64,000 nt of DNA from a virus. Below the pieces are notes generated by a model that saw only the letters and a program-made list of their open reading frames with translations, was not told the origin of the DNA and made no database searches. The position numbers and the translations under genes are program-made. The stretch lies in IMG/VR virus record IMGVR_UViG_3300047557_001530, positions 96,001 through 160,000 of that record; one strand, written 5' to 3'. This document shows positions 1,633-43,016 of the stretch, piece after piece (position 1 is the first letter of the stretch; each line of letters opens with the position of its first letter).

Positions 1633-1971
1633 ATGAAAGTGCAATCAGCAAAAGCGAAAGGTCGCCGTCTTCAACAATGGGTTCGTGATAAACTTATCGA
1701 AATGCTTGATGTCCATCCTGAAGATATTGAAAGTAGATCTATGGGTGCTGGTGGGGAAGATTTAATTATGGCACGAGCTGCCAGACAAAAGTTTCCTCAC
1801 AGCATTGAATGTAAAAATGTAGAAAAGTTAAATGTTTGGGAAGCATATGAACAAGCCCAAGCAAACTCAGGTGATTATGAACCAGTCCTTGTCATGAAAA
1901 AGAATGGCAAAAAGCCATTGGTTGTAGTAGATGCCGAGTATTACATTCAACTTCACGGAGAAAAACAATGA
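1633..1971 (+). CDS. PD-(D/E)XK nuclease, Holliday-junction-resolvase-like
   Basis: N-terminal SAKAKGRRLQQ, GEDL and IECK motifs. Confidence 0.7.
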   Translation: MKVQSAKAKGRRLQQWVRDKLIEMLDVHPEDIESRSMGAGGEDLIMARAARQKFPHSIECKNVEKLNVWEAYEQAQANSGDYEPVLVMKKNGKKPLVVVDAEYYIQLHGEKQ

Positions 1972-2672
1972 AAATTACTTTACAAAATTTCTTTGAACAC
2001 TTTGATAAGAATAATCCGAATCATGTAAAAGCAGTACAAATGTTTCTACATGCCCTAGAAAAAGCAGCACCAGAAGAACTAGAAGATACTTCTGGCTGGG
2101 TCAAAACATTCAGAACACCTGTTCAAAAACAAGCAACAAATATTTTAGAAAACTTTCCTTGGTTTCCTCAGACAGACAACTACAGGGATGCACAAAGAAC
2201 TTGTAATAGTTCTGCCTGTGCTATGTGCTTAGAATATTTAAAGCCAGGTACACTCAAAGGACCTAAAGGTGATGATGCTTATGTTCAAAAAGTATTTGCT
2301 ATAGGTGATACCACTGACCACACGGTTCAAACTCGTGTGTTGATGTCTTATGGTATTAATTCTGCTTTTAGATATAACTTAACATTTGATGAACTCGATA
2401 AGCAACTTGCAGCCAAGCGTCCAGTTGTTATTGGAATCCTTCACAGGGGAACCCTAGCAGCCCCTACAGGAGGCCATATGGTTGTTGTGATTGGGAAGAC
2501 GCCCGCAGGCGATTACATCGTTCACGACCCTTATGGCAGCCTTAACGACGGTTATACAGGACCTGTTACAAATGGCAGGGGTGCGGTGTATAAGCGTAGC
2601 GATCTTGTGCGTAGATGGTGTCCTGCAGGAAATGATGGTTGGGGTAGAGTTTTTGATGCTGTAAAAAAGTAG
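1968..2672 (+). CDS. C39-like (papain-fold) peptidase, probable endolysin N-terminal part
   Basis: FPQTDN...RTCNSSACAM (Cys), GGHMVVVIG (His), VHDPYG (Asp). Confidence 0.85.
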   Translation: MKITLQNFFEHFDKNNPNHVKAVQMFLHALEKAAPEELEDTSGWVKTFRTPVQKQATNILENFPWFPQTDNYRDAQRTCNSSACAMCLEYLKPGTLKGPKGDDAYVQKVFAIGDTTDHTVQTRVLMSYGINSAFRYNLTFDELDKQLAAKRPVVIGILHRGTLAAPTGGHMVVVIGKTPAGDYIVHDPYGSLNDGYTGPVTNGRGAVYKRSDLVRRWCPAGNDGWGRVFDAVKK

Positions 2673-2704
2673 AAAGTTCTATCCCTCAAGCTGGGATAGA
2701 ACTT
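2663..2704 (+). other. Programmed -1 ribosomal frameshift signal
   Basis: A_AAA_AAG in frame at 2663-2669 immediately before TAG; perfect 12-bp hairpin AAGTTCTATCCC-tcaagct-GGGATAGAACTT at 2674-2704. Confidence 0.85.
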
Positions 2705-3145
2705 ATACGTGAGTTTGAAGGATGTCATTTACATGCCTATCCAGACCCAAAAACTGGCGGACCTCCTATTACAATTGGATGGGGAAGTACTAAAGATTTT
2801 AATGGTCAATCATTTAAAATGGGAAGGACAATAACACGAGAATATGCTGATAAACTTTTAGAATTTGATATTAAAAACAGATTCCTTCCTTATCTAGAAA
2901 AAATTCCTTATTGGGGAGAAATGAATGACAATCAACGGGGAGCACTTCTCAGCTTTGCTTATAATCTCGGTGCTGGCTTTTATGGCGGAGTTGGTTTTAA
3001 TACTATCTCTCGCAATTTACGTGAGAAAGATTGGTTATCAATCCCAAAAACATTAGAATTGTATCGTGATCCTGGCACTAACGTAGAAGCAGGATTACTG
3101 AGGAGAAGGAGAAGAGAAGGTTCTTTGTGGTTAGGAATAGGGTAA
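2669..3145 (+). CDS. GH24 phage lysozyme domain, reached in the -1 frame of the peptidase ORF
   Basis: The -1 frame reads VESSIPQAGIELIREFEGCHLHAYPDPKTGGPPITIGWGST before the ATG at 2819, then NQRGALLSFAYNLG...GLLRRRRREG. Confidence 0.9.
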   Translation, partial: VESSIPQAGIELIREFEGCHLHAYPDPKTGGPPITIGWGSTKDFNGQSFKMGRTITREYADKLLEFDIKNRFLPYLEKIPYWGEMNDNQRGALLSFAYNLGAGFYGGVGFNTISRNLREKDWLSIPKTLELYRDPGTNVEAGLLRRRRREGSLWLGIG

Positions 3146-3469
3146 AGCAATACCTTCGCTTAACATTTTTTCATTTAATGTGACAGGATCGCCAACAAGA
3201 TAAAGAGTGCCAAGTATTCTTCCATACTTGTCCTCTTTTGTTGTTTCAATAATCCACTCTCCTTCACGGGAGAGTTCTTTTTTTAGCCATTCTTTTGCCG
3301 ATAGACCTTTTTCTTTCTCTGCTAGGTCTTTGGTTCTAGTTTCGGCAGCATTAATATCTTTTAGTCTTATTCTTTGAGAGAGTGTGATACCAAAACCTAA
3401 ATCAATATCAACATCAATAGTGTCGCCATCAATGATTCTCTTGATCTTCTTGATCTTGTATTGATACAT
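3131..3469 (-). CDS. Staphylococcal-nuclease-like (thermonuclease) protein
   Basis: IIDGDTIDV, RIRLKDINAAET, DKYGRILG motifs. Confidence 0.85.
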   Translation of the reverse strand: MYQYKIKKIKRIIDGDTIDVDIDLGFGITLSQRIRLKDINAAETRTKDLAEKEKGLSAKEWLKKELSREGEWIIETTKEDKYGRILGTLYLVGDPVTLNEKMLSEGIALPYS

Positions 3470-3578
3470 CTTTCATCTCCAAATATGCTAACCTTAATAT
3501 GTAGTAAATTATCCAAGCAGTGAATACCAATCCACTGCCAAGTATAATAACTACTCCCCAAGGAAAATCGTGAATCAT
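3429..3578 (-). CDS. Small membrane protein (49 aa; not in the ORF track)
   Basis: MIHDFPWGVVIILGSGLVFTAWIIYYILRLAYLEM..., one hydrophobic helix, start overlaps the upstream stop. Confidence 0.55.
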   Translation of the reverse strand: MIHDFPWGVVIILGSGLVFTAWIIYYILRLAYLEMKDVSIQDQEDQENH

Positions 3579-3781
3579 TTTTTAACTTCTCTCAAAATCT
3601 CCATCATTAAATCTTGTTGTTTTTCAGAATCATTCTTCATTTCTTGAAGAGTTTTTTCCATCTGAATAATTTTTTGCTCTTGAACTACAGTCTTTTGTTG
3701 AAGACCCCAAAAACTTGTTACACCACCAATGATGGCAGCTCCTATTAGAGATGTTGCTATCGTGCCCATATTGAGTTCCAT
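3575..3781 (-). CDS. Small protein with N-terminal TM helix and coiled coil
   Basis: Hydrophobic N-terminus followed by Q/E/K heptads; tight operon packing. Confidence 0.6.
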   Translation of the reverse strand: MELNMGTIATSLIGAAIIGGVTSFWGLQQKTVVQEQKIIQMEKTLQEMKNDSEKQQDLMMEILREVKK

Positions 3782-3782
3782 T

Positions 3783-3977
3783 TTAATATCTACCTTCCTG
3801 TTTATGTATCCAAGTTTTTAATTCGTGAAGATATTGTCTAAGTTGATCTGCTTTTTCTAGATGCCATTTATCACCACTCTTGAAATACTCTTGAGTGTGG
3901 TTGTCTATTGCTTTGAGAATATTATGTATTGGTGCGTTCCAAGGCTCACGTTTGGGAGTATTCCATTCTCTTGGCAT
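3783..3977 (-). CDS. Hypothetical cyanophage protein
   Basis: ORF with GGAGG upstream, tight packing. Confidence 0.7.
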   Translation of the reverse strand: MPREWNTPKREPWNAPIHNILKAIDNHTQEYFKSGDKWHLEKADQLRQYLHELKTWIHKQEGRY

Positions 3978-5552: not shown

Positions 5553-5624
5553 GGGCGATTAACTCAGCGGTAGAGTAATTCCCTTACAAGGAATGAGTCA
5601 CTGGTTCGATTCCAGTATCGCCCA
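5553..5624 (+). tRNA. tRNA-Val(UAC)
   Basis: Cloverleaf GGGCGAT/ATCGCCC; loop CT-TAC-AA. Confidence 0.95.
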
Positions 5625-42859: not shown

Positions 42860-42905
42860 GGTTACATCGGTGGGAGACCACCAGCACCTCGACAATTTAA
42901 CCTTT

Positions 42906-42978
42906 GGGTCTGTAACTCAGATGGTAGAGTAGCGGGCTTTTAACCTGTAAGTCGTCGGTTCGATCCCGACCAGACCCA
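42906..42978 (+). tRNA. tRNA-Lys(UUU)
   Basis: GGGTCTG/CAGACCC; loop CT-TTT-AA. Confidence 0.95.
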
Positions 42979-43016
42979 TCGACCGCCCCAGTTCGGTCAT
43001 TAAACATAAACTGTTT

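Follow-up and report, generated by a model that had tools for sequence, protein, structure and literature searches.

In the E. coli dnaX gene the heptamer A_AAA_AAG is read by tRNA-Lys(UUU), a stem-loop stands a few nucleotides (nt) to its 3′ side and two products, tau and gamma, are made from one gene. The IS3 family (e.g. IS911 and IS3) makes OrfA and OrfAB in a similar way, and there the short product and the fusion differ in activity. In phages, a −1 frameshift yields the tail assembly chaperones G and GT; it is routinely missed by gene callers and is not known to be used by T4-like phages. Here we describe a predicted −1 frameshift site in the lysin genes of a T4-like cyanophage, at which the end of a cysteine peptidase gene meets a lysozyme reading frame that has no start codon ahead of its catalytic region. 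All coordinates refer to the window, the 64,000-nt stretch that was analysed (positions 96,001-160,000 of IMG/VR record IMGVR_UViG_3300047557_001530).

We regard it as highly likely that this locus uses a canonical −1 programmed ribosomal frameshift of the dnaX/IS3 type, which would give a 234-amino acid (aa) peptidase and a 392-aa peptidase-lysozyme fusion. We read the locus in this way because the signal is in phase, the slippery site is conserved at the nucleotide level, the hairpin covaries, the lysozyme frame is under purifying selection and some relatives carry the same two domains as in-frame fusions. The features concerned are the following.

1968-2672, plus strand: open reading frame (ORF) of the 0 frame, encoding a predicted 234-aa papain-like cysteine peptidase (PF13529), with the C-terminus ...AVKK followed by TAG.
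2654-2656, plus strand: TGA in the −1 frame, which confines a productive shift to 2657-2672.
2663-2669, plus strand: slippery heptamer A_AAA_AAG, in phase with the peptidase ORF (X_XXY_YYZ phase; codons GTA AAA AAG).
2670-2672, plus strand: TAG, the 0-frame stop, abutting the heptamer.
2674-2704, plus strand: predicted stimulatory hairpin with a perfect 12-bp stem, a 7-nt loop and a 4-nt spacer, from its minimum free energy (MFE) and from relatives.
2669-3145, plus strand: −1 frame ORF after the slip, 158 codons, comprising a linker and the predicted GH24 lysozyme domain (PF00959) and ending in TAA at 3143-3145.
2819-2821, plus strand: ATG, the first ATG, GTG or TTG of the −1 frame, 34 codons past the catalytic Glu.
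42905-42980, plus strand: phage-encoded tRNA-Lys(UUU) found by ARAGORN, the species that would slip on A_AAA_AAG; it is given as context, its link to the frameshift being a presumed one.

The likeness to dnaX is close, with an identical heptamer, the same tRNA-Lys(UUU), a 3′ stem-loop a few nucleotides on and two products, which are predicted ones here. However, the dnaX shift truncates its protein, whereas the shift in the window would add a whole catalytic domain, and the 0-frame stop here abuts the heptamer. As in the IS3 family, A_AAA_AAG with a 3′ structure would fuse two ORFs, of which the second has no efficient start codon, but the proteins are transposases there and the cell-wall hydrolases of a lytic phage here, where the structure is a simple hairpin. 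In the G/GT system, too, a −1 frameshift that is conserved in phages occurs as an ORF ends and yields a short and an extended protein; it differs in its slippery sequence and in that the proteins are structural rather than enzymatic. The same two domains occur in one polypeptide in the in-frame fusions of other cyanophages, e.g. ACG-2014f (phrog_3617) and, in reversed order, S-CREM1 (phrog_10051). These differ from the window in being single ORFs without recoding, and six of the seven distinct in-frame junctions have no slippery heptamer; three of them spell Lys-Lys as AAG AAG. A full-text literature search found no publication on a frameshift in a peptidase-lysozyme gene, with the proviso that there may be papers beyond the coverage of that search. 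The mechanism is a textbook one (dnaX, the IS3 family), and the class of gene and the joining of two enzymes by recoding appear to be unreported.

In the mechanism that we propose, a ribosome translating the peptidase ORF would meet A_AAA_AAG with TAG next in the A site and the 12-bp hairpin 4 nt further on. A fraction of ribosomes would slip back by one base, tRNA-Lys re-pairing from AAA-AAG to AAA-AAA (tandem slippage), and decoding would resume at GTA (2669) and continue through a short linker into the complete GH24 lysozyme. The slip would be aided by the hairpin and by the adjacent stop, the ‘shifty stop’ of the older E. coli literature. Termination would leave the 234-aa cysteine peptidase, and frameshifting would extend it to the 392-aa peptidase-lysozyme, which for this phage would be the sole route to an active lysozyme. 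We infer from sequence both the slip itself and the action of the products on the host peptidoglycan at lysis. It is also conceivable, if unlikely, that the frameshift does not set a fixed ratio but times lysis in a regulated way, its efficiency shifting during infection so that the lysozyme-bearing fusion is made late only. As a speculative example of a cause, the phage tRNA-Lys(UUU) might accumulate and displace a host tRNA that reads AAG more firmly. Under such a timer, lineages might repeatedly have swapped A6G slippage, U8 slippage, stop-start coupling and in-frame fusion in order to retune the timing; this too is speculation.

The sequence of the locus fits the frameshift in its details. 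The −1 frame is open from 2657 to 3142, it is closed upstream by the TGA at 2654-2656, and the ATG at 2819, 50 codons past the shift point, is preceded by no other ATG, GTG or TTG. Starting 4 nt past the heptamer, the arms of the hairpin (2674-2685 and 2693-2704) are perfect reverse complements. The hairpin folds with an MFE of −20.4 kcal/mol (z −4.6), which was equalled by no sequence in a set of 200 shuffles. A first-pass annotation, made from the letters of the window, had claimed that the peptidase ends GTA AAA AAG TAG with the heptamer at 2663-2669, that a perfect 12-bp hairpin lies 4 nt on, that the −1 frame opens only after the TGA and runs to 3145, and that the lysozyme catalytic region precedes the first ATG. 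All of this holds, and the lysozyme turns out to match PF00959 over its full length. The same annotation had put the products at 234 aa and about 392 aa, in a presumed fixed ratio; the lengths agree with the predicted transframe length (234 + 158 = 392 aa). Across the whole 171-kb genome, just two long ORFs have A_AAA_AAG in phase close to their end and can be extended by 30 codons or more in the −1 frame, and the placement of one such site at the end of the peptidase is therefore beyond what we expect by chance.

The evolutionary evidence comes from a scan of IMG/VR with the peptidase, which returned 80 loci of 67-92% amino-acid identity. With four isolate loci and the window these make a comparison set of 85 sequences. 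A lysozyme lies directly downstream in the −1 frame in 65 of them, corresponding to 49 distinct junctions. The other arrangements are two in-frame fusions, one fusion with the domain order reversed and 16 peptidases that stand alone.

An in-phase A_AAA_AAG is found in 45 of the 49 distinct −1-frame junctions. The 0-frame stop follows the heptamer directly in 37 of these and one codon later in the remaining 8, and the −1 frame of the relatives opens just 10-31 nt ahead of that stop. The codon on the 5′ side of AAA AAG is GTA (23 junctions), GCA (21) or GAA (1), i.e. its third base is A in every case, compared with 30% for the other GCN and GTN codons of these ORFs. Likewise, the Lys-Lys pair is spelled AAA AAG in 45 of 45 junctions, while elsewhere in the ORFs lysine is 67% AAA and 33% AAG. 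On these counts the heptamer is conserved at the nucleotide rather than the protein level. Four −1 junctions have no AAAAAAG (L027, L032, L043 and L047), and in all four an ATG or GTG overlaps the peptidase stop. No ATG, GTG or TTG lies ahead of the catalytic Glu in 20 of the heptamer junctions; the start-like codons of the remaining ones are scattered and unconserved.

The hairpin is similarly widespread. In the 39 distinct junctions without a start that overlaps the stop, a hairpin lies 0-7 nt to the 3′ side of the heptamer, with a median of −16.8 kcal/mol and a median z of −3.7 (z < −2 in 34 of the 39). The median hairpin of the 10 junctions that do have such a start is just −6.5 kcal/mol. 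The stem itself varies by lineage, e.g. aagttctatccc/gggatagaactt in the window, aatcaacatcaca/tgtggtgttgatt in one lineage and gccaactaa/ttagttggc in another. Its 3′ arm always lies in the codons of a conserved lysozyme motif, G-[IV]-x-L (G-I-E-L in the window), and its 5′ arm, in the variable linker, tracks the 3′ arm. We assessed the pairing by per-sequence folds, by a swap test and by counts of pairs within lineages, in place of a single consensus fold. Matched 5′ and 3′ halves have a mean of −17.0 kcal/mol, as against −7 to −9 kcal/mol for chimeras between lineages. In the largest lineage, 98.6% of cells are paired, versus 30-49% in slid registers, with three doubly compensated pairs. The window's own group has 90.3% paired and three compensated pairs. 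Predicted pairing that is kept in this way despite sequence divergence amounts to covariation. A search of Rfam gave sub-threshold chance matches only at this locus. The −1 frameshift had been put forward from the window by itself, and the alignment of homologues now lends it both the conservation of the heptamer and compensatory changes in the stem.

Both reading frames encode recognizable enzymes, and both of the Pfam matches pass the curated gathering cut-offs. The −1 ORF matches PF00959 (Phage_lysozyme) with an E-value of 2.2e-21 and 76.9 bits against a cut-off of 22.3, and the match covers profile positions 2-125 of 125; no other PF00959 match occurs in the genome record, whose completeness is 88%. 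Among 38 relatives the motifs FE, DP and PITIGWGS are invariant. By these matches the −1 ORF encodes a complete, predicted GH24 lysozyme domain. The alignment of the window lysozyme to solved lysozymes begins at their residue 6, just past the 5′ arm of the hairpin, and for this reason a product started at ATG 2819 would lose the motifs that hold the Glu (EFEG), the Asp (YPDP) and the Thr (ITIGWG). That ATG is a non-functional start, as far as this alignment predicts. For 38 distinct sequences, the ratio of non-synonymous to synonymous substitution rates (dN/dS) is 0.15 from the heptamer to the position of the window's first ATG and 0.17 downstream of it, both values being rough as dS is close to saturation. 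Judged from these ratios, the start-less −1 ORF is a working gene under purifying selection.

The 0-frame ORF matches PF13529 (Peptidase_C39_2) with an E-value of 2e-10 and 41.8 bits against a cut-off of 24, and the residues C79, C84, H170 and D187 are invariant in 28 relatives. A sequence search of the PDB with the peptidase gave no significant match, and a fold search was used instead. The AlphaFold2 model (predicted local distance difference test score 75) has papain-like proteins as its best fold matches, with template modelling scores of about 0.45-0.5; these include the C39-like peptidase 3erv and staphopain. The profile, the invariant residues and the model agree in assigning the predicted 0-frame product to the papain-like cysteine peptidases. 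A reading of its N-terminal sequence reveals neither a signal peptide nor a transmembrane segment. The homologues carry the annotation endolysin or lysozyme. From these annotations and from the fusion partner, we infer a putative action on peptidoglycan and a role in lysis, presumably as the endolysin rather than in some other degradation of the wall; that the genome record holds a single PF00959 match lends this indirect support.

The arrangement of the two domains varies among the relatives. In the isolate S-PM2 the peptidase ORF ends GCA AAA AAG TAA and a start-less lysozyme follows in the −1 frame, where it is annotated as a 72-aa ‘putative lysin’. In S-SRM01 both the heptamer and the −1 relation persist, with an ATG that overlaps the stop (caATGA). 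ACG-2014f is a peptidase-lysozyme fusion in frame, and S-CREM1 is a fusion with the domain order reversed. That fused proteins of this kind exist is also evident from phrog_3617, since this one family of 405 positions covers both the peptidase and the lysozyme halves. For the phage in the window, for S-PM2 and for about 45 distinct relatives, the lysozyme is very probably made only via a slip at A_AAA_AAG, as judged from the junctions. In a quick peptidase tree, many branches of which are weakly supported, the frameshift class (40 of 64 distinct rows) is found throughout, interspersed with the peptidase-only and own-start forms.

Two pairs of loci in this set, L056/L070 and L063/L078, have near-alike peptidases, yet different types of linker and hairpin. 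Such a mix points to recombination in the vicinity of the junction or at the junction itself, or to a fast turnover of the linker. Two peptidase-only loci, L060 (about 1005-1030) and L067 (2167-2190), end ...GAT GTA AAA TAA with no lysozyme downstream, and look like derivatives of the frameshift form after loss of the lysozyme.

The best competing explanation, which we consider distinctly unlikely, is that there are two separate genes, the lysozyme being initiated at a non-canonical codon (e.g. an Ile codon of the linker, ATC or ATA) or by termination and reinitiation after the TAG, and the heptamer being incidental. A free lysozyme does seem viable, for S-SRM01, L017, L027, L032, L043, L059 and L073 have an ATG or GTG that overlaps the peptidase stop; an Ile-Pro pair recurs across many linkers, and the peptidase stands alone at sixteen loci. 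However, two genes would leave unexplained why the in-phase heptamer and its third base are so conserved, why the heptamer is lost only at junctions that have a start, why a strong hairpin is found only where no start overlaps the stop, and why the −1 relation is invariant with the −1 frame open across the heptamer. In addition, the linker codons on the 5′ side of any Ile codon are under purifying selection, and one entire lineage (VETPTNN...) has no Ile-Pro pair.

A natural variant of the shift site bears on the next alternative. In S-CAM7 (L085:1880-1950) and two IMG/VR relatives (L086 and L087), whose peptidases share 56% identity with that of the window, the peptidase ORF ends GTT TTT TTT CCA CAG TAG, i.e. 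in a T8 run. A start-less lysozyme again follows in the −1 frame, with a different hairpin (gtagaacc/ggttctac, about −18 kcal/mol), and the GenBank entry at the S-CAM7 locus is a 90-aa ‘lysin’. By its sequence and setting, the T8 run is a second slippery sequence, which would serve the same purpose. These sites and that of the window are homopolymers, which makes it conceivable that RNA polymerase slips and that some of the mRNAs, having gained one A at A6 or one U at T8, carry the fusion in frame. T8 is in the range of known RNA polymerase slippage, which renders this idea more plausible for the T8 variant, but slippage becomes appreciable only in runs longer than A6. Furthermore, transcriptional slippage has no need of a trailing G, an adjacent stop or a particular phase of the run, all three of which are conserved, and a covarying hairpin 0-7 nt downstream is a hallmark of ribosomal frameshifting. 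We find transcriptional slippage highly improbable.

One locus, L084 (2187-2260), reads A7 (GTA AAA AAA GTA GAA) and encodes in frame the predicted transframe junction ...VKK-VE...; it retains the hairpin, at −22 kcal/mol. Its A7 may be genuine, as a fixed variant or a reversion, or the contig may have a homopolymer error there. As the window comes from an assembled virus record, one might also argue that the A6 itself is a one-base error for a true A7 and that the gene is an ordinary in-frame fusion. The first-pass annotation had named A7 in relatives as an observation that would refute frameshifting; it occurs in 1 of about 50 distinct junctions, L084. Across many independent metagenomes, 45 distinct junctions show A6 with a stop, and three records of the isolate S-PM2 (AJ630128, NC_006820 and LN828717) do so too. 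In-frame relatives, with the one exception among seven mentioned above, do not retain the heptamer, and the hairpin covaries. Because of this comparison with relatives a sequencing error is very unlikely, and we attach next to no weight to it.

Equally negligible is the idea that the hairpin and the A run are an intrinsic terminator of the convergent minus-strand genes (3131-3977) beside a decaying lysozyme remnant: such genes do converge on the locus in the window and in S-PM2, and 2704-2674 is called as a minus-strand terminator by a scan (stem of 12 bp, then TCTACTTTTT), but the T run begins 5 nt past the stem and about 430 nt beyond the minus-strand stop, and in the class without an overlapping start the next gene is on the plus strand at 20 junctions and on the minus strand at 17, with no correlation with the signal. 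On that distance and those strands we rejected the terminator reading of the hairpin; it also leaves the phase and the missing start unexplained, and about 60 loci have an intact lysozyme ORF, with the low dN/dS given above.

Some points weigh against the frameshift that we favour. A sub-lineage encodes the two proteins separately by a stop-start overlap, and therefore fusion is not obligatory for function. The dnaX gene has an upstream Shine–Dalgarno-like stimulator, and no clearly conserved counterpart was found at the 45 heptamer junctions. A GGGGT about 14 nt upstream stems from Gly-Trp-Gly-Arg codons, in which the third base of the Gly varies (GGT 18, GGA 13, GGG 5), and the motif is constrained by the protein. 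The spacer of 4 nt is shorter than the typical 5-9 nt. When all 39 junctions were given to RNAalifold, no common structure emerged, because lineages differ by one codon in the register of pairing. Finally, the window's genome is a metagenome-assembled virus record.

The fusion of ACG-2014f (L004:2013-2045) is in frame, yet carries A_AAA_AAG in phase; the −1 frame stops at once (KKV*), and a GC-rich hairpin of 8 bp lies 5 nt to the 3′ side of the heptamer, a truncating geometry like that of dnaX. A truncating frameshift of dnaX-like polarity was considered for this phage and rejected, the six other distinct in-frame relatives being without the heptamer; judged by this comparison, the ACG-2014f heptamer is a probable relic.

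If the frameshift is true, it provides a clean, deeply conserved −1 frameshift of the bacterial type in phage cell-wall lysins, a class of genes for which the literature search gave no published case, with close relatives that serve as natural ‘experiments’ (A7, U8, stop-start overlap and in-frame forms). The lysis genes of T4-like cyanophages are poorly defined, and the public annotations of the relatives miss the predicted peptidase-lysozyme fusion product. The first-pass annotation had expected gene callers to report a truncated lysozyme, and they do so in both S-PM2 and S-CAM7, whose ‘truncated’ lysins are probably full two-enzyme proteins. At these loci, the systematic output of gene callers is either no gene or a dead fragment of the lysozyme, and metagenomic counts of cyanophage lysins are biased as a result.

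Some minor observations concern the surroundings of the locus. A terminator-like hairpin with a T run (3256-3275, plus strand) lies 110 nt to the 3′ side of the lysozyme stop, within the convergent minus-strand ORF 3131-3469, and may mark the end of the lysin transcript. The window contains 16 tRNA genes, including tRNA-Val(UAC) at 5553-5624, the reader of GUA, which is the first codon after the proposed slip. The second of the two sites found in the whole-genome count (L111:1070-1231, i.e. G000:C1 about 89969-90130) is located 6 kb upstream of the window. There, a Lys/Glu-rich ORF of about 310 open codons ends GAA AAA AAG AAC TGA, with a 51-codon −1 extension and a hairpin 6 nt to the 3′ side of the heptamer.

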